Shown in pieces: positions 54,100 through 62,373 of a stretch of 64,000 nucleotides of DNA; position 1 is the stretch's first letter; each line of letters begins with the position of its first letter. The stretch spans positions 146,582-210,581 of the forward strand of contig JBGPGO010000007.1 in the NCBI GenBank assembly GCA_041483895.1, in the 5' to 3' direction. Position numbers and translations under genes: made by a program. The notes beneath the pieces are model-generated. The model made no database searches. It was not told where the DNA came from and saw nothing but the letters and a program-made list of their open reading frames with translations. This DNA is from Fimbriimonadia bacterium (GTDB lineage: Bacteria; Armatimonadota; Fimbriimonadia; Fimbriimonadales; JABRVX01).

Positions 54100-55355
54100 A
54101 AACGGTTTCATTGCGGCAAGGGATGACGATTGATCGGGCTCTCTCAGTCAAGTCAGGGACATATACTTTTGGTGGAGATGGGCCGGGGCACTCTCTGTCC
54201 ATTACTGGGTCGGACTATTTGTTGGAGTTCCTGGGCTCGAAGCTGTGCTCCGTTAAGAAGCTGAGCGGCGATATGACGAAAGGCACGGGCGTCTTGATTA
54301 AGGGTGCGCGGGGGGTCAGCATCGCCGGCCTGGATGTGAGTTGGTATCACCGCGGGATTCAACTCGAAGATTGCGAGGATGTGACGCTGATTGACTGCGA
54401 TGCATCGGATAACGGCCAACGAAAGTTTCGAAGCACGGACTCCAAATATGACAAGCGCGATTTTCTGGACATATTTCACTATAAGGTTTGGAGCAAATAT
54501 GGGGCGGGTATCTATCTGAAGAATTGCAAGCGGTGCAGGGTGATCAATTGCGTGGCGAAGTATCAGTTAAATGGGATTATATTGGATGGGTGTGAGGACT
54601 GTTTGATCGAGGGGAATGTTTGTACGGATACCATGGGGTGGGGGATTCGGTTGTGGAGCAGCAGCAACAATCGCATTATCGGAAACGATTGTAGGCGATG
54701 CGTAAGCGGGGAGTCGGCGATTTACAGCCACGGGAACGATAGCGCGGGAATCGTGATGGTCAATGCGTGCCATCATAATCTTATCTCCGGCAACGACTTG
54801 CGTCATTCCGGGGACGGGTTTTTTCTTACTGCGGATTTAGGGACGGAGCAGTCGAATGACAACCTCATCGTCGGAAACGATGGGTCTCATGCGCCGCACA
54901 ATCCGTTTGAGTCCACCTTTTGCCTGCGCAATAAATTCTACAACAACAAGGCTTCGCATTCGCACTACGGATTTTGGATGGGTTTTTCTTGCGATAACGA
55001 GCTGATTGCCAACGAGATTGAATACAACCGTGCGGCGGGCGTGGCGATCGAGCACGGGCGGGGGAATCGGATCATAGGGAATCGATTCCGATTCAATCGC
55101 GAATATGGGATATTGCTATTTCGTCGGCGCAAGGATGGACCTGCGTCGGAACACTATCAGATTATTGGGAACGAATTTGACGAGAACTTCACTGCCGTTG
55201 AAATGCGGCTGACCTCGCATTGCGTCCTATACCACAATTCGCTTCCCGGAAGGGATATCTACACAGCTCAAGGATGGGAGGGTCCGAATGAAGACATTGT
55301 TGTCGATGGAGTAGATGTGGCGTCCCCGGACTATTGGAAAGATTGGCATGAGTAG
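54096..55355 (+). CDS. Right-handed parallel beta-helix repeat protein (NosD/pectin-lyase-like)
   Basis: Repeated GI.L....NN.I.GN units. Confidence 0.8.
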   Translation: MKTVSLRQGMTIDRALSVKSGTYTFGGDGPGHSLSITGSDYLLEFLGSKLCSVKKLSGDMTKGTGVLIKGARGVSIAGLDVSWYHRGIQLEDCEDVTLIDCDASDNGQRKFRSTDSKYDKRDFLDIFHYKVWSKYGAGIYLKNCKRCRVINCVAKYQLNGIILDGCEDCLIEGNVCTDTMGWGIRLWSSSNNRIIGNDCRRCVSGESAIYSHGNDSAGIVMVNACHHNLISGNDLRHSGDGFFLTADLGTEQSNDNLIVGNDGSHAPHNPFESTFCLRNKFYNNKASHSHYGFWMGFSCDNELIANEIEYNRAAGVAIEHGRGNRIIGNRFRFNREYGILLFRRRKDGPASEHYQIIGNEFDENFTAVEMRLTSHCVLYHNSLPGRDIYTAQGWEGPNEDIVVDGVDVASPDYWKDWHE

Positions 55356-55440
55356 GGATGGGCTGAATGACACCGTCGGAAACCCACGTCAAGCGCTCTG
55401 ACGACTTATCCGGCGATAATCGTTGCGGCCCAATCAAAGG

Positions 55441-56346
55441 CTATTGATCGAACAGGCCGAGTGTCTGCTTCTGGCTCTCAAAGTCTATCTCAATGAGCTG
55501 CAGCGGCTGCAAGGCTTCCCGCAAATCTACAACCTTTGCGCCGTGCGATCGCAACTCGGTTTCGGCCCGCGCGCCCTCTATGACAAAAACTTTTCGGCCC
55601 TCTTTCAACGCATCCGTGGCACCTTGCCACGTGCCGCCGGTGCCGGGATCGCACTCGACAATCAGCGTCGCCTCCGCGCAGGCATAAGCCAATCGGTTGC
55701 GAGCCATCGCGTTCCCCACGTCGAATCCCGCCTCTGGATGCACTTCCGACACGAGACAGAGATCGCCTTCGTCCAGCACGATATGAATCCCGGATCGGCG
55801 CGTCGCGCGCAACAGGCTGTCGGAAAGAATCCCCACCACCTTGCCGCCCGCCTCCAACGCGGCCTGCATTGCCGCCGAATCCACTCCGCGGGCGCCGCCG
55901 GAGACCACGCACAGTTCCGCCAATACGCAGGAGCGAGCTACCTCCGCCGCCTGCTCGAGCCGCTCCTCCGACGCATTCCGAGAGCCAACGATCGCAAATC
56001 CTGAGAGACTGAGGAGGCAGATGTCTCCTGCGCCATATAGGAGGGCCGGCGCACGATTCTTCAACCGTGTAAATGCTACGGGAAAGTCGGAATCTCGGAC
56101 GGATCGGACCCATATCCCCGCGTCGCTCCACCGCTCCAACTGTTCGAACACGTCTCGCGCCTGCAAGGCCCGAAATCGCTCCGGATCGATGGGGCACCCA
56201 GCGAGATCGGCGGGCAAATCTTCCTCCGGGCCCAACCACGCGGCTAGTTCCAGGACCTCGCGATTGGACAGCGGCCGGCAGTCGTCCACGAGCCACCGCG
56301 CGGTGAGTTGAACCGCCAATTGCGTGAACGGAGACATTTCAGCCAT
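55441..56346 (-). CDS. DprA/Smf-like DNA-processing protein
   Basis: PALLYGAGD, AIVGSR, VVSGGARGVD, AMARNRLAY and GGTW.GA. The start overlaps the stop of the RecQ-PRTase remnant (ATGGCTGA). Confidence 0.9.
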   Translation of the reverse strand: MAEMSPFTQLAVQLTARWLVDDCRPLSNREVLELAAWLGPEEDLPADLAGCPIDPERFRALQARDVFEQLERWSDAGIWVRSVRDSDFPVAFTRLKNRAPALLYGAGDICLLSLSGFAIVGSRNASEERLEQAAEVARSCVLAELCVVSGGARGVDSAAMQAALEAGGKVVGILSDSLLRATRRSGIHIVLDEGDLCLVSEVHPEAGFDVGNAMARNRLAYACAEATLIVECDPGTGGTWQGATDALKEGRKVFVIEGARAETELRSHGAKVVDLREALQPLQLIEIDFESQKQTLGLFDQ

Positions 56347-56557
56347 CGGCGTGAGCCACCGCCGTCGAAGTAAGCGCAAAGGGGTATACCTCCGGGCAGC
56401 CCGCCTGCCGGAGCATGGCCCCGATCACCGTAAAGGTCCATCCCGAATCCACCATGTCGTCAACCAACAACACCGGCTCCTTTCTCATCGCAGCCAATTC
56501 GAACACACCGTCCAGATTTCTCGCCTGCTGAAAGCTGTTGTGCATTGTTTCGAGCTT
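56339..56557 (-). pseudogene. C-terminal remnant of a RecQ-family helicase with phosphoribosyltransferase domain
   Basis: TMHNSFQQARNLDGVF...PVLLVDDMVDSGWTFTV...LRQAG...VYPFAL, containing the PRPP-binding motif. Confidence 0.8.
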
Positions 56558-56653
56558 GATTTTTTCACGTCCAGAGGTCGCGGGGGTCCAACAAATGGTA
56601 GTCGGCGGGCAACCAACGAGGACACATCATCAGGGCCATTGTCGGGAAATGCT

Positions 56654-57568
56654 CTAGGTACGCGCATCGCTATCCATGCTCTCCGTAATGCCATCTATGA
56701 CGGCCTTCCAGTTTGGTAGACAAGGGTTGCTAGGGGTGATCGATTTAAGGTAGGCGTAGTACCCAGTAAGTTCTAATACTCTGGGAACAAATCGCCGGGG
56801 ATCGTGGTTAGCCTGAAAGAACACAGCGCGAAGCCTGAGCCTCAAATAGCGGGGCAAATTTGCAGACTCGTTTACAACTAGCCCGGTGACAAGCTGACAA
56901 TTCGTCTTATAGTTCACCCGGAATTTGGCCAAATTGATCAGAAACCCTTCGTCTGCGATAATTTCTGAGACGCGCTGGAAAGAACTGCGGCTGAAACCCT
57001 TTTCACCGGAAATTGTTATGTCATCGCAATAGCGCGTGTAGCCATATCCTCGCTTACTGCAATATCCCACAAGCCTCCCGTCAAGTTTCCGGCAAATCAA
57101 GTTTGCAATGTCCGGAGATGTTGGCGCGCCCTGCGGTAGTCTTCCCCTGTATGTGCAAATTCTTGTAAAGGTGGAGGCAATTTCAGCTGAGTATCCTAAT
57201 GACCGGTACAATTCAAAGACCCGATTGCTGCTGATTGTTGGGAAAAAATCCTTGAGGTCGATGTTTGCAACGAAGTCCCTACCTGTATGCTGATCGGCGT
57301 TCTTCAGAACACTGCATCGCGGTCGAAAGGCCGTGGCGGCTGGTGAGATTTGAATCTGGCGGAGCACATATACGAGAATCCACCGCTGGAAGCCTTTAAG
57401 AACCTTGCTTGGAGCAGCAATCTTCCTGTATCCTCTGCCTCCCCGCTTCGGTAGTCGAAAAACTTTGTAGTGACGATCCGCATTTGCACGAAGGTCGTAA
57501 ACTGTACCTGTCGTGATGCCAAGGTACTGAGAGAGTTGTACGACGTCGGCTACTGCAATCTGGGCCAT
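56654..57568 (-). CDS. Retron reverse transcriptase
   Basis: PKRGG.G.RKI.AP, NADQH (retron region X NAxxH), DLKDFF, LPQGAPTSP, YTRYCDD and VTGLVVN (region Y VTG). An alternative GTG start lies at 57577. Confidence 0.95.
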   Translation of the reverse strand: MAQIAVADVVQLSQYLGITTGTVYDLRANADRHYKVFRLPKRGGRGYRKIAAPSKVLKGFQRWILVYVLRQIQISPAATAFRPRCSVLKNADQHTGRDFVANIDLKDFFPTISSNRVFELYRSLGYSAEIASTFTRICTYRGRLPQGAPTSPDIANLICRKLDGRLVGYCSKRGYGYTRYCDDITISGEKGFSRSSFQRVSEIIADEGFLINLAKFRVNYKTNCQLVTGLVVNESANLPRYLRLRLRAVFFQANHDPRRFVPRVLELTGYYAYLKSITPSNPCLPNWKAVIDGITESMDSDART

Positions 57569-57585
57569 TCTTCTCACTAAACCAT

Positions 57586-57750
57586 GGGCGGATGCTTTGT
57601 GACAACTCTTCGCCGGTCCGGATCTGGTGTATTAAATGCAGGAATCTGCAGCCGAATACACCAGTTCCCGGACTGATAATGTTATCATCGTATCCAGAGT
57701 GACGATTGCGTCACCCGTCACTGCCGAGGCAGTTCAAAGACATACCGCCC
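57586..57750 (-). ncRNA. Retron msr-msd non-coding RNA
   Basis: Terminal imperfect inverted repeats at 57586-57599 and 57735-57750, two short msr-like hairpins (57720-57733, 57699-57714) and a long msd-like hairpin (57616-57673), immediately 5' of the RT. Confidence 0.85.
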
Positions 57751-57756
57751 GTCTGC

Positions 57757-57786
57757 AATTTACCCTTCGTCAGAGCTAATGCGCAA
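57757..57786 (-). promoter_or_regulatory. Candidate sigma70-like promoter for the ncRNA-RT transcript
   Basis: TTGCGC, 18-bp spacer, TAAATT on the minus strand. The predicted +1 falls at about 57750, the first base of the terminal repeat. Confidence 0.5.
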
Positions 57787-57796
57787 GTGCGTGGCC

Positions 57797-58618
57797 TCAG
57801 GAGCGGTCGGCGCCTTGGAGCCGCGCATTCAGCACGGCGAGCCTTACTCGTGAAATGTCGAGTGCAGCCGATGGGGAGACGCCTAAGGCGTCGATCGGCA
57901 TTTGCGGCAGATAAGTTTTTTTCTCTTCCTTTATCATCCCTATCTGAAACAGCTTGGTGAGGCTAGGCCGCACGATTTTTTCCGATCCGATGACTTCGCA
58001 GAGTTCGGCGTAACTGATCGGGTGCGACACGTAAATGCCGCACAATGTCACGTATTCCTCGAATGTCAGTGGCTGAAGTAGTCGCGCCGCGCGCTCGGAC
58101 TTCAAGTACCATTGACGGGCGATGCGTAGATCTATATCTGAAAGGACTCGACCCCGTGAAACGGATTGTGCCGGGTCATAGTATATGATGCTATCCTGGT
58201 CGAGGAGTCGGAGCGGGCCATGATTAATGAAGCTGTCCGAATCCCGGAATTTGATCGGATTGAACACAACAAGTTTATCATGCAGCTTGTTATTCAATGC
58301 AAATGCAGTGACTTCAGCGATCGTACCGGCTGAGCCGAGAAATATTACTATCAAATCCGACTCTTCGGCTTTCTTGACTTCAATGGACAAGAGATCGCCT
58401 TTCTTCTTGACCCTCACGTCATCAAGCCCCTCGATCTCTTCGCCCAGGAAGGCATCGCAGCCCATTTTTCGGTTCAGTTCGTGACGCAGCTGGCGGCGCA
58501 AATCTCTGCCGCGAGGTTCGGGCTGAGAACCGCACAAGAACACTTTGAGCCTGCGACCCATTTGCATATGGGCAAACAAGCCGCTCAGGTAGAAGGATTT
58601 CGGGGTGGCGTTATCCAT
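57797..58618 (-). CDS. Retron type II (Eco1/Ec86, St85-like) effector: NDT-like domain plus putative winged helix
   Basis: VFLCG, DLLSIE...AEESDLIVIFLGSAGTIAEVTAF and SFINHGP; C-terminal ISYAELCEVI...LTKLFQIGMI. ATG at 58618 is preferred. Confidence 0.85.
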   Translation of the reverse strand: MDNATPKSFYLSGLFAHMQMGRRLKVFLCGSQPEPRGRDLRRQLRHELNRKMGCDAFLGEEIEGLDDVRVKKKGDLLSIEVKKAEESDLIVIFLGSAGTIAEVTAFALNNKLHDKLVVFNPIKFRDSDSFINHGPLRLLDQDSIIYYDPAQSVSRGRVLSDIDLRIARQWYLKSERAARLLQPLTFEEYVTLCGIYVSHPISYAELCEVIGSEKIVRPSLTKLFQIGMIKEEKKTYLPQMPIDALGVSPSAALDISRVRLAVLNARLQGADRS

Positions 58619-58706
58619 TGGGTTAAGCCTAATTGCCTTCCTGTCGAGTCGCTCCAACGCTAAAGTGGAGTAGATGGTACCCGACCTGTTGACCAACAAT
58701 AGATTT

Positions 58707-58805
58707 TAGTCGGCCCGCCGCCCGGATCGCCTCTTCCTGCCCGGCCCGAAATTCAGCCGTCGGATTTCCGAGCGCCTCTCGAAGCAAATGAACCAGCGAA
58801 GTCAT
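58707..58805 (-). pseudogene. N-terminal remnant of a RecQ-family helicase
   Basis: GGAGG RBS and MTSLVHLLREALGNPTAEFRAGQEEAI (FRxGQxEAI motif 0). Similarity ends before Walker A. Confidence 0.75.
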
Positions 58806-58875
58806 GTCACATCCCTCCGACGGCAATAGACTCGCACATCGCCCCGGTTTGTGACAAGCGTTCAGAAAAAAATCC

Positions 58876-61800
58876 TTAAAATCGGAGCGTGTAGTCCACG
58901 GAGCCGACCGTCCAGTTCCTGTCCCGGTCGTTGGGGACCGCATGTTGGTACTGCGTGTCGGCAATCGAGAAGGAGAGCGCGTTCTGAGGATTGACCGTGT
59001 AGGAGTACCGGAGGGAAACCGTATGGCCGATGGTCGAATTGCCGTAGATGTTGGACGACTCCAGCCCATAGCCGACCGACCACAGGTCCAATCCCTTGGG
59101 GTTCTTCATGTTCAACGTCAGGCCGCCTTTGCGAGCGACCTGGCCCTTCGTATCGTCATAGTTGGTTAGGTAGCTGCCGACGATCTCGTTGCGCTTGTCC
59201 AGCCTCATCCCCAGCGCCCAGTTGCTGGTTCCCGTCGGATTGATGATCGTGCCGAAGGGAACGTTTTGCTGCGCCTTTTCCGGGTTGGCGCTCAGATCAT
59301 GGGTGAGCGTCAGGAAGTTGCCCATTTTGTAGTCGAGATGATAGGTACGAATGATCTGCTGAATGTCGCCCGGTAGCGTGCGAATCTTATAGAGAACGTT
59401 GGCGTGGAACGTCTGTTTCGGATCCGGGTTGGTCGTGTAGTTGAATGTTCGATCCACTGCCCGGAAGCCGGATGGAGTCATCGCGCCGCCGTAGCTCCAT
59501 GCGAGCTTGCTCGTGCCCCAATCGGCGGAGAAGCTGCCGGTTTTGTTCTCTGTCTTCCACACCGTGGCTTCCGCAAGGCTCTGATAACCGAATGCGAAGG
59601 TGGCGTTCTTCAGCGGTCCGAAACGGAACGGCTTGGTGTTCTTCAGCCCAAACTGCCCGGTGGCTTTCGTGTTCGTGGCATCGCTTCGATCCTCAACGTA
59701 TCCGCCGGAAAGTTCCAGGTTTCGGAAGGTGGTCTGGCTGATGCTCCAGTTCTGCGTCGCTTTCCCTAGACCCTGGCTGTTGAGCATGCGCGTGTACGAC
59801 CATTGGAATTTGGTACCTTTACCCAGGTCGTATCCGACGCCGTATATTCGGTGCACCTCGTCCGCCCGCTTGTCATCTCGATCGATGGTCTTTTCCGTTA
59901 CAGAAAGGTTCAGGCGCTTGGTGATGTTCCCGGAAATGCCATTTACGTCGGTATGCTCTTTGTTTCCCGCGCTGTCGTCCATGACCAGGTGTTCGGAGAC
60001 CAGTCCCAATCCGCCGAAGGGCGATCCTTCGTATTTCCAATACTGAGTCTGTTTGTCGACGCCTGTCGCTGTCGTTCCGCCGCTTGATTCCCGCTCCGTA
60101 AAGCTTGCCAGTTTCCCGATTTTGCCGAAATCCCGATTGAGGGTAGTCTTCTCGTGCTGGTAATCACTCAAACTAGCGATCGGGGAATCTGCTTTGAGCC
60201 GATCGTTGAGGTGAGTGAACCCAGTGTTCTTGTCCGGCGCCCAGTTGATGAAGAACTTCGTCTGTCCTCGTTCGATGGCCATATCGGGATTGCTCGCCCC
60301 GAATTGGAACAGCTCCGCGGAGAGATTCTTGAGCAGCTTTATCTTCCCGGAAAAATCAAACTGCTTGAACCCGCGCAGTTCGGATAGCAGGCCCGTCTCC
60401 GGGTCAGCCAGATCAGCCGCCCTGGTGAATCCATTGTCCACGTTTCGGAAGTTCGCGAGGAGCTCGTAGTTGCCGCCTTTGAATCCGATGGTTCTTCGGG
60501 TAAAGCCGCCGCCTTCGCCACCGAGCGCCAAGTCCCTTACGCTTATGGTGCCGTTCTTTCCGAGCGCCAATCCCAATGACCACTCGTGGCGAGAAAGGCC
60601 CGTTTCATTCGCATAAAATTTCCGTTCTGATTCGAGCAGGTCGCCGATTCTGCTGAATCCCGCATCGATGCTTTGGTCCAAATAGTTGAACGATATGGTT
60701 TTCGTTGACAGACCGAATCGCTTGCGGTCGATGCCGCCATTCTTACCATCGATCGAATACATGTCGAAGGCCAGCTTGCCGAACTTTTGGTCCAGTGAGA
60801 AGCCTCTATAGTCGCGGGTAAGGCCCGCCTGGCGTACCAAGAACTCCTTGTCTTTCGGTCCGATGGCGTTGTCATCCGACTGGTAGCTTTGGTGGATTTC
60901 GTGGATGGCGGCGTCCTGCTCGTCCGGGCGCAAGTTGCCGAGTCCCGAAAAGCCGGCATCCGCCTGCGTGGAGGTCCAACGAAGACCCCAACCGAGGCCA
61001 TTGAACATCAGGTTGCGGCGGACGAAATCCCCGCCGCTCGTTTCGACCCGATCCTCGGCGAAAGTGTTCCAAACATCCTTGCGCCGCATGAAGTCCAGAA
61101 GCTGGAGCCGGAAACCGCTGCGATGGAAGCCGGTTTCCTTTTGCCACTGGCCGCGCTCGCCTTCCGCCAGGTCGCCGAACCGGGTGAAACCTGTGCCGAT
61201 CGTTTGATCGTAATGCGAAAGCTTCGCGACCTTCGTATCGAGCGAAAGGTTTTGCTGATGGATTTCCCCTCCCGCGTCCCGAATGCTCTTGTCGTCGTAC
61301 TTCAGCAATCCATCTTTGAGAGCCAGCGCCGCGCCCATATTGTCTCGCGTGATGCCCTTTTCCTTTGCCCACTGTTGGGCGTCGGCGTCGTTCAGGTCCT
61401 TGAAACGTGTGAACTGCGGATCAACCCACCGGGAGCTCCATGAAAAGCTGGCCGCGCCTGCCTTGAAATCAAATCCGCGGCGCTCGATGCTTCCCTGCCC
61501 GTCCGTGATGCGGCTGAACAGGCTGCTGAAGTCCGTCGAGCCGGTTCCGTACCCCAGGCTGTAGCCGAGACGGTTGATCCCTTTTTCCTTTTGCCATTGG
61601 TTGACCTGATCTTGGCTCGCTCCTTGTCCGGTGAGCCCTTCAAAGCCATTGAACTTCGCGCCGATGTCGGAATAGTTGACGTTCGCCCGGAAGCCGCCTT
61701 CTTTCAGCGCCAGGTTTTGGTAGATGAACCGATCCATGACGCTCTCCTTCGTCGATCCTTGCTTCGTGTCCGGTGAATTGGGATTGGCGAATGACTTGAC

Positions 61801-62373
61801 GCCCTGCTGAGAGGACATGAAGTAGATGCCGGATAGGCTGGACCCGCCTCCCAGTTGGAAGTTGTTTGCGATTCCATAGGTCATGCGCTGCAAAATGCTT
61901 CCATCTTGCAATCGTTCCGCGCCCATTAGGCCGAACGAAGCCTTAATCGCGCCACCTTGGCCGAAACTAAAAGCGAGCAATGGCTGACCCGAAGACTGAT
62001 TTTGCCCAACCAAAGACGGGTCGTGGCGATAGAGTACCGTGACCGATTCTTGGGATCGGACCGCCCGGACGAAGGTGAGCGTGCCCGACGAATAATCGAT
62101 CTGATAGTCCTGGCCCCTGTGGAGAGTTTTCCCGGCCACGTCCACAGTCTCGGTGCCGGGAACGATGCCGCCGTAGCGAAGGGCGTATCCGAATCCGCTC
62201 CCGTTTCCCGGCAATAGATCGGAGGCGGCGGTTCCGGCCACAGTCGGCGTTGACGGTATGTCTGTGTAGCCGCCACTCCCCTGATTCAGGAAGTCGTCGT
62301 ACCATTGCGCGGCCGCCCGTGGCCCGAAGGCCAAAGGAAGTACTAACGCAAGGACGAGGATCAGTTTCCGCAT
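58876..62373 (-). CDS. Large putative outer-membrane beta-barrel protein with internal repeats
   Basis: Signal peptide, amphipathic beta-strand-rich sequence, C-terminal DYTLRF and a recurring (I/V)DxGFxRxxDL motif. Confidence 0.7.
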   Translation of the reverse strand: MRKLILVLALVLPLAFGPRAAAQWYDDFLNQGSGGYTDIPSTPTVAGTAASDLLPGNGSGFGYALRYGGIVPGTETVDVAGKTLHRGQDYQIDYSSGTLTFVRAVRSQESVTVLYRHDPSLVGQNQSSGQPLLAFSFGQGGAIKASFGLMGAERLQDGSILQRMTYGIANNFQLGGGSSLSGIYFMSSQQGVKSFANPNSPDTKQGSTKESVMDRFIYQNLALKEGGFRANVNYSDIGAKFNGFEGLTGQGASQDQVNQWQKEKGINRLGYSLGYGTGSTDFSSLFSRITDGQGSIERRGFDFKAGAASFSWSSRWVDPQFTRFKDLNDADAQQWAKEKGITRDNMGAALALKDGLLKYDDKSIRDAGGEIHQQNLSLDTKVAKLSHYDQTIGTGFTRFGDLAEGERGQWQKETGFHRSGFRLQLLDFMRRKDVWNTFAEDRVETSGGDFVRRNLMFNGLGWGLRWTSTQADAGFSGLGNLRPDEQDAAIHEIHQSYQSDDNAIGPKDKEFLVRQAGLTRDYRGFSLDQKFGKLAFDMYSIDGKNGGIDRKRFGLSTKTISFNYLDQSIDAGFSRIGDLLESERKFYANETGLSRHEWSLGLALGKNGTISVRDLALGGEGGGFTRRTIGFKGGNYELLANFRNVDNGFTRAADLADPETGLLSELRGFKQFDFSGKIKLLKNLSAELFQFGASNPDMAIERGQTKFFINWAPDKNTGFTHLNDRLKADSPIASLSDYQHEKTTLNRDFGKIGKLASFTERESSGGTTATGVDKQTQYWKYEGSPFGGLGLVSEHLVMDDSAGNKEHTDVNGISGNITKRLNLSVTEKTIDRDDKRADEVHRIYGVGYDLGKGTKFQWSYTRMLNSQGLGKATQNWSISQTTFRNLELSGGYVEDRSDATNTKATGQFGLKNTKPFRFGPLKNATFAFGYQSLAEATVWKTENKTGSFSADWGTSKLAWSYGGAMTPSGFRAVDRTFNYTTNPDPKQTFHANVLYKIRTLPGDIQQIIRTYHLDYKMGNFLTLTHDLSANPEKAQQNVPFGTIINPTGTSNWALGMRLDKRNEIVGSYLTNYDDTKGQVARKGGLTLNMKNPKGLDLWSVGYGLESSNIYGNSTIGHTVSLRYSYTVNPQNALSFSIADTQYQHAVPNDRDRNWTVGSVDYTLRF

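Follow-up and report, generated by a model that had tools for sequence, protein, structure and literature searches.

A probable Ec86-like retron with an A-facing-A junction in its msr-msd RNA, located inside a broken psyrT toxin gene

The DNA analysed here (64,000 nucleotides of contig JBGPGO010000007.1 from a Fimbriimonadia bacterium, hereafter the window) carries a cassette of about 2.1 kb composed of an effector gene, a structured non-coding RNA (ncRNA) and a reverse transcriptase (RT) gene. All the genes of this neighbourhood lie on the minus strand, and the order is effector, ncRNA, RT, with 46 nt between the end of the effector gene and the first arm of the ncRNA (a1) and 9 nt between its last arm (a2) and the start of the RT gene. 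The RT gene, 56654–57577(-), encodes a protein of 307 aa that matches PADLOC RT_II-A (5.5e-83) and reaches 237.8 bits against NCBIfam retron_St85_RT (NF038233; curated cutoff 235), with the PADLOC scores of RT_II-A, RT_XIII and RT_III-A lying close together for this protein. NADQH, VTG and YCDD can be read in its translation, and NAxxH, VTG and YxDD are the retron RT motifs named by Mestre 2020 (PMC7736814). Its best match among solved structures is the RT of Ec86 (1.6e-51). The same is true for the effector, a nucleoside deoxyribosyltransferase-like (NDT-like) protein of 273 aa counted from its ATG, 57797–58618(-), whose best match among solved structures is the Ec86 effector (4.8e-14, over residues 23–210). 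It also matches PADLOC NDT_II-A (4.3e-31) and NCBIfam STM3845_fam (109.4 bits, cutoff 100); the longest ORF at this position begins further upstream, at the TTG at 58699.

A broken psyrT toxin gene surrounds the cassette, which replaces about 550 of its about 690 residues while leaving both gene ends in place. The N-terminal remnant of this RecQ-like toxin, 58706–58805(-), corresponds to PsyrT profile positions 8–48 of 689 (E 0.0026), is also supported by alignment to intact PsyrT of relatives, and falls in a 58-codon ORF, 58805–58632(-), upstream of the effector. The C-terminal remnant, the PRTase-like end at 56342–56626(-), corresponds to profile positions 618–686 of 689 (E 4.5e-23) and was also found by tblastn to intact PsyrT. 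Its stop is overlapped by an intact psyrA gene, 55441–56346(-), which encodes a DprA-like antitoxin (PADLOC PsyrA 7e-77; Pfam DNA_processg_A). Compared with a PsyrTA system as defined by PADLOC PsyrT and PsyrA, the window thus keeps two psyrT ends and an intact psyrA; in all five related genomes examined, the best PsyrA homolog of the genome is preceded by an intact PsyrT of 685–734 aa. No PsyrT was found next to the homologous RTs (0 of 160 loci). PsyrA was considered as a partner of the retron and rejected, as it adjoins just one of the 160 homologous RT loci, there on the other strand, and belongs to the broken psyrTA; psyrA and psyrT are genomic context, outside the retron.

The cassette shows signs of recent acquisition, namely its low G+C content (49–54%, versus 62–65% for psyrA) and the absence of its RT from all 40 related genomes searched. 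An imperfect 18-nt direct repeat (78%) is present at both cassette edges, 58697–58714 and 56589–56606, 2108 nt apart, with the shared core TAGTCGGC (plus strand), and may be a recombination scar or may be due to chance. We rejected an assembly artefact, as contigs of four sequencing runs show no differences across the left junction or, starting from 56600, at the right one. The replacement of a toxin core by a retron cassette, with the antitoxin left intact, clearly illustrates turnover within such a locus, be it a toxin-antitoxin or a defence system, and makes the insertion site informative. Two other features of the surroundings were observed. The RT frame and the psyrT C-terminal remnant lie in the same frame (56654–56342, minus strand), with three stop codons within 30 nt between them. 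Upstream of the locus, an ORF of 1165 aa, 58876–62373(-), begins with what resembles a signal peptide and could be assigned to no family of Pfam or PADLOC; its sole match was a weak one to T9SS SprA (E 3.4e-4).

Contigs from other sequencing runs agree with the window throughout the region. A separately assembled contig from another sediment run spans 56851–58162 without any differing letter, two further runs are identical to the window on the a2 side, and the contigs of the four DNA runs contain no variant in the region, at a low read depth of about 4x and in runs that may stem from one campaign. Among the sequencing runs searched for the ncRNA stretch, none of those containing it is recorded as RNA. 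When read by eye, the 46-nt spacer contains a weak candidate promoter, TTGCGC-18 nt-TAAATT at 57757–57786(-), which ends 7 nt before 57750. A consensus scan for promoters (requiring 4 of 6 positions per hexamer) and terminators returned none on the minus strand near the ncRNA, and the Rfam covariance models gave no match to 55000–60000 at E values up to 1.

The ncRNA itself, 57586–57750(-), runs from a1 to a2, as read from the sequence, from a fold with a z-score of -6.72 and from a covariance model match to its msr part. The first-pass annotation had described it as an RNA with a canonical retron layout. Every element of that description was recovered on the minus strand at the same positions, and the minimum free energy (MFE) structure predicted by RNAfold reproduces a1, the two msr hairpins, a small palindrome, the 58-nt stem and a2. 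This structure has an MFE of -77 kcal/mol, compared with -47.9 (sd 4.3) for 200 dinucleotide shuffles, none of which was as stable. Both sequence and RNAfold place a1 at 57735–57750(-) and a2 at 57586–57599(-); they pair in a 14-bp duplex with two bulged U, which closes the structured ncRNA directly 5' of the RT gene. Within it, msr hairpin 1 (57720–57733(-), 5 bp, ACUGC-CUCG-GCAGU) is supported by RNAfold and the covariance model and has a homologous hairpin in relatives. The same two methods support msr hairpin 2 at 57697–57716(-), which had been read as GUGACG-CAAU-CGUCAC and whose stem in fact extends to 8 bp (GGGUGACG-CAAU-CGUCACUC). A small hairpin at the msr/msd boundary, UGAUAA-CA-UUAUCA at 57674–57687(-), is found in the sequence and in the MFE structure and is missing from the centroid structure. 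It is followed by the long msd hairpin of 58 nt, 57616–57673(-), with the tip UGCAG-AUUC-CUGCA, and by a 3' template tail, 57600–57615(-), that separates the msd hairpin from a2 in the RNAfold structure. When the plus strand from 57601 to 57690 was folded as DNA, the same long hairpin was obtained (z -5.26).

We then compared this RNA with the regions upstream of related RTs, using 160 homologous RT loci taken from contigs of genomes and metagenomes, in which the best identity to the window's RT is 58%, over part of the protein. At the nucleotide level, blastn of the ncRNA against 80 genome-contig loci returned only chance matches of 12–22 nt, none of them 5' of an RT, and 29 loci from viral contigs contained no closer relative (best RT identity 43%). 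The best full-length RT homolog (49% identity; L081:1208-2584) is followed by a DUF222-HNH endonuclease ORF, and its contig begins inside the msd. Folding was applied to the 280 nt before the RT start in the 22 best homologs having upstream sequence. In 21 of these 22 regions (the exception being L091) we found a common layout, consisting of a long a1, a junction CU(C/U)U(G/A)-G, a 5-bp hairpin ACCGC...GCGGU, an 8-bp hairpin GGUUGAUG-UUU-CGUCAACC, a variable msd, and a2 preceded by a G. The second msr hairpin of the window corresponds to the 8-bp hairpin of these relatives. Duplexes between a1 and a2 were present in 19 of the 19 loci examined, with unrelated sequences; a permissive search for such duplexes in more distant loci returned over-long, unreliable pairings and was left out of the results.

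As the first-pass annotation had proposed, folding of the RNAs of homologous RTs was combined with an analysis of covariation. The seed alignment consisted of 19 msr segments from homolog loci, with the window left out. In it, standard pairs make up 94.4% of the cells and in five pairs both partners have changed, whereas slid partners were paired to 15–58% only; the covariation score was reached by none of 500 shuffles, a count that overstates the support since the 19 seeds are related to one another. The covariance model built without the window matched 57690–57745(-) with 23 bits (E 3.6e-4) and 12 of 12 pairs standard. Over the 64 kb, on both strands and with filters off, this was the sole match below E 1, the next one reaching 9.2 bits (E 1.5); as these E-values are rough owing to a shortened calibration, we place weight on the gap in bits and on the position of the match directly before the RT. 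A conserved structure, whose absence would have counted against the first-pass interpretation, is thus present 5' of homologous RTs, and the model derived from it locates the msr of the window. Based on the covariance match, the shared layout and the presence of a1/a2 in relatives, we judge this msr to belong, in diverged form, to a family of RNAs linked to RTs. As the RT of the closest relative shares 58% identity, covariation supports the msd stem and a1/a2 of the window at the family level only; the lack of a close copy for covariation follows from the RT being found in one of 41 related genomes, the window's own.

Some of these loci also contain a relative of the effector. With the window's effector as a tblastn query, an NDT gene was found 5' of the RT in five of the 160 loci (L002, L047, L082, L092 and L113). 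In three of them (L082, L002 and L092) the upstream ORFs match NDT_II-A, with the same RNA and the RT coming next in that order. Two loci, L047 from Serratia and L183, have an Ec86-like RNA as read from their folds; under the covariance model, hairpin 2 of L047 was matched weakly (14.2 bits, E 0.66). We also observed that the model matches hairpin 2 alone (GAUGAUG-UUU-CGUCAUC), about 650–720 nt before the RT, in further loci, including L048, L050, L055, L056, L061, L064, L069, L071, L121, L124, L125 and others. Most of these loci are Flavobacterium/Bacteroidota retrons, and the position of the match suggests that a further gene lies between their ncRNA and RT gene.

What was observed directly at this locus is how the RNA folds, in which order the genes lie, to which families the proteins belong, and that the msr is homologous to RNAs 5' of related RTs. 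We consider it very probable that 57586–57750(-) encodes the template/primer RNA (msr-msd) of a type II-A3 (Ec86-like) retron made up of three parts, the NDT-like effector, the ncRNA and the RT. The gene order matches the "Nuc_deoxy+Retron" arrangement of effector, ncRNA and RT listed as type II-A3 with Ec86 as a described member (Mestre 2020, PMC7736814). Here the assignment is based on gene order, effector family and nearest solved structures, clade 9 being the RT clade of II-A3 in that classification (PMC7736814) and the match to the Ec86 RT the one indication of it at this locus. Effectors of this type are expected to be NDT-like with a C-terminal DNA-binding part, and the structural match of the window's effector covers residues 23–210. 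Retrons of the Ec86-like kind have already been described, and the RNA of the window adds a member to them.

A different reading, in which the interval is not a retron RNA and instead forms an intergenic regulatory structure (an attenuator, a terminator or a processing site), would account for a strong fold located between two co-oriented genes. We give this reading next to no credence. The consensus scan found no terminator-like site there, the complete retron layout is present, and RNAs homologous to its 5' part stand before related RTs regardless of the upstream gene, which in the loci sharing the window's msr motif is LigD, GcvP-like, DUF900 or NDT.

Within the retron RNA, the A-facing-A junction is what we regard as the single real departure from the family. 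At the junction, 57734–57735(-), G57735 forms the last a1/a2 pair, with C57599, and A57734 is unpaired opposite A57600, both in the MFE structure and in the model alignment; A57734 takes the place of an unpaired G in relatives. In the 19 loci with a1/a2, an unpaired G follows a1 in all and a G precedes a2 in 19 of 19; as these loci were picked by a motif requiring the unpaired G, the independent observations are the facing G and the loci L015, L047, L183, L102 and L159. Read by eye, the junction letters are two opposing Gs in L015, L047, L183 and L102, while L159 has a U opposite the G. The closing pairs of L015, CUUUG/CAAAG, are the same as in the window, yet its junction is G facing G. Two opposing G residues are likewise marked in the published retron RNA consensus (Mestre 2020, PMC7736814), and the characterised retrons covered in the cited accounts (PMC7736814, PMC8989520, PMC6868368) are all described as priming from a conserved guanosine, although Se72 is listed as a validated retron without an apparent priming G (PMC6868368). 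The window can be aligned with its relatives in two registers. In the first, that of the model alignment, both facing Gs are changed to A. In the second, G57735 coincides with the conserved G; it is then preceded by a U-A pair and lies opposite a C, one extra A is found before hairpin 1, and a commonly conserved A (57600) becomes the first template base.

These observations bear on the nucleotide from which the RT would prime, previously placed at a G at or near 57735. This assignment stands in so far as G57735 is the only G at the junction, and is weakened by its pairing with C57599 and by the presence of A57734 at the position of the unpaired G of relatives. We regard G57735 as the likeliest candidate for the branch nucleotide, and a reasonably probable one. 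The ncRNA gene could instead be a genuine retron gene that no longer primes, with A57734 in place of the ancestral unpaired branch G and A57600 in place of the G opposite; it would then yield little or no branched msDNA, and the cassette would be decaying or working differently. This would fit the G at the facing position in 19 of 19 relatives, the junctions of the five loci read independently (including L015 with its identical closing pairs), the opposing G residues of the consensus (PMC7736814) and a cassette that looks like a recent arrival, with its RT in none of 40 related genomes. However, the RT and effector frames are intact, with the catalytic motifs present, G57735 is directly beside the junction, and in the second register it coincides with the conserved G, provided that a single additional A is accepted ahead of hairpin 1. 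Loss of priming thus appears unlikely while still deserving some weight, and the intact RT and effector frames lead us to favour, mildly, a working retron. A working retron might also depart from the rule of an unpaired G facing a G, either by priming from A57734 or by making unbranched or otherwise atypical RT-DNA, which we consider improbable. The more specific form of this proposal, priming from the 2'-OH of adenosine A57734 in the canonical unpaired position to give a branched, rA-linked msDNA, is very improbable in our view. In the structure-aware alignment A57734 does share a column with the invariant G, and both facing positions have changed together, from G/G to A/A, with the mismatch kept. 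Against it, characterised retrons are described as using a conserved guanosine (PMC7736814, PMC8989520, PMC6868368), no adenosine branch was found in the titles and abstracts among the matches listed by a search of the retron branching literature, and the proposal rests on one sequence at about 4x depth. If a departure of this kind were true, it would be the first natural case of a branch nucleotide other than the canonical unpaired guanosine. Irrespective of the reading, the junction is unusual, and its A-facing-A mismatch beside a stem-terminal G offers a cheap natural test case for the priming needs of RTs, which matter for retron-based genome editing.

For the preferred reading, a working retron that primes from G57735, the behaviour of characterised retrons allows us to infer msDNA synthesis, its branch nucleotide and stop point, a role in defence and a trigger. 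The RNA would fold with a1 paired to a2, the RT would bind both msr hairpins, and the 2'-OH used for priming would be that of the nucleotide at the junction, most probably G57735. Reverse transcription would start at 57600 or 57601, going by the retron mechanism described in PMC6868368, and the msd would be copied leftwards from about 57600/57601 to about 57675–57690. The predicted product is a branched single-stranded DNA of about 75–90 nt, with plus-strand sequence, that would fold into a hairpin. The msDNA interval proposed by the first-pass annotation (plus strand, about 57600–57680) follows from the layout of the RNA. By analogy with Ec86 and Sen2, the complex of RT and msDNA may keep the NDT effector switched off until the msDNA is altered or modified by a phage protein.

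As to what might be sensed, the internal loop near the stem tip had been put forward as a possible sensing element, for which the sequence and fold provide no particular support. Ec86 is described as sensing Dcm methylation of CCTGG in its DNA stem-loop (10.1101/2023.08.16.553469), and Sen2 as sensing Dam methylation of a double-stranded GATC contacted by the effector (10.64898/2026.10.13.758329). Since the feature sensed in both retrons, as reported in these sources, is a methylation site in the msDNA stem, such a site seems to us a better founded candidate than the loop near the tip, although this is only a guess. The msd of the window contains CCGG on both arms at the base of the stem (57671–57668 and 57621–57618) and, where the internal loop lies, GATC on a single arm (57624–57621); a CCWGG site was not found in it.

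Among characterised retrons, the closest counterpart is Retron-Eco1 (Ec86), listed as type II-A3 (PMC7736814). Its order of NDT-like effector, ncRNA and RT is the same as in the window, its RT and effector are each the best solved-structure match of the corresponding protein, and both RNAs have a1/a2, two msr hairpins and a long msd hairpin. In addition, the Ec86-like locus from Serratia (L047), with its upstream NDT gene, is among the homologs of the window's RT. In contrast, the window's RT is only as similar to that of Ec86 as distant homologs are, its msd shows no sequence relationship and does not contain the CCWGG sensed by Ec86 (10.1101/2023.08.16.553469), and two As oppose each other at the junction in place of two Gs. 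While the II-A3 RNA family is labelled "Proteobacteria/Firmicutes" in Table 1 of PMC7736814, the host of the window is an uncultured sediment bacterium, to which the Ec86-like system of RNA, RT and effector now extends.

Retron-Sen2 (St85), of type II-A1, shares other features with the locus. Its effector and that of the window are both members of the RcaT/STM3845 family, and the score of the window's RT attains the NCBIfam cutoff for St85. The Sen2 order is msr-msd, effector, RT (PMC11701397), whereas that of the window is effector, msr-msd, RT. In Sen2 the msDNA hairpin is described as the sensor that holds the effector (10.64898/2026.10.13.758329). The GATC sensed by Sen2 is double-stranded (10.64898/2026.10.13.758329), unlike the single-arm GATC of the window at its internal loop.

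Finally, most of the closest RT homologs with upstream sequence come from ncRNA-RT cassettes of Obscuribacterales/Melainabacteria (L001, L003-L013 and L083-L089), which also provided most of the alignment seeds and whose RTs are 39–50% identical to that of the window. They share with the window the msr motif, CU(C/U)UGG followed by the ACCGC hairpin and then by the GGUUGAUG-UUU-CGUCAACC hairpin, located about 150–300 nt before the RT start. Unlike the window, they have no NDT gene detectable by tblastn, and their junction is G facing G. In seven of these loci we scanned the genes upstream, finding LigD in L004, L005 and L086, a GcvP-like protein in L006 and L009, DUF900 in L001 and no family in L084. 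As these ORFs (415–767 aa) belong to the families named or to none, and vary between loci, we rejected them as a new effector. The cassettes thus appear to share the RNA-RT module without the window's effector, which fits the modular picture of retrons drawn in PMC7736814. An msr hairpin motif is therefore common to the window and to Melainabacteria-like ncRNA-RT cassettes without an NDT gene. Like the wider host range, the junction and the turnover at the defence locus, this leaves the current picture of retrons unchanged. A minor likeness was also seen in the msd of L082, one of the loci with an upstream NDT gene and the closest RT homolog that has an RNA (58% identity over residues 33–248), where a hairpin at L082:2330-2350 (CCUGCG-AUUC-CGCAGG) resembles the tip of the window's msd, UGCAG-AUUC-CUGCA (57650–57637), the remaining msd being different.
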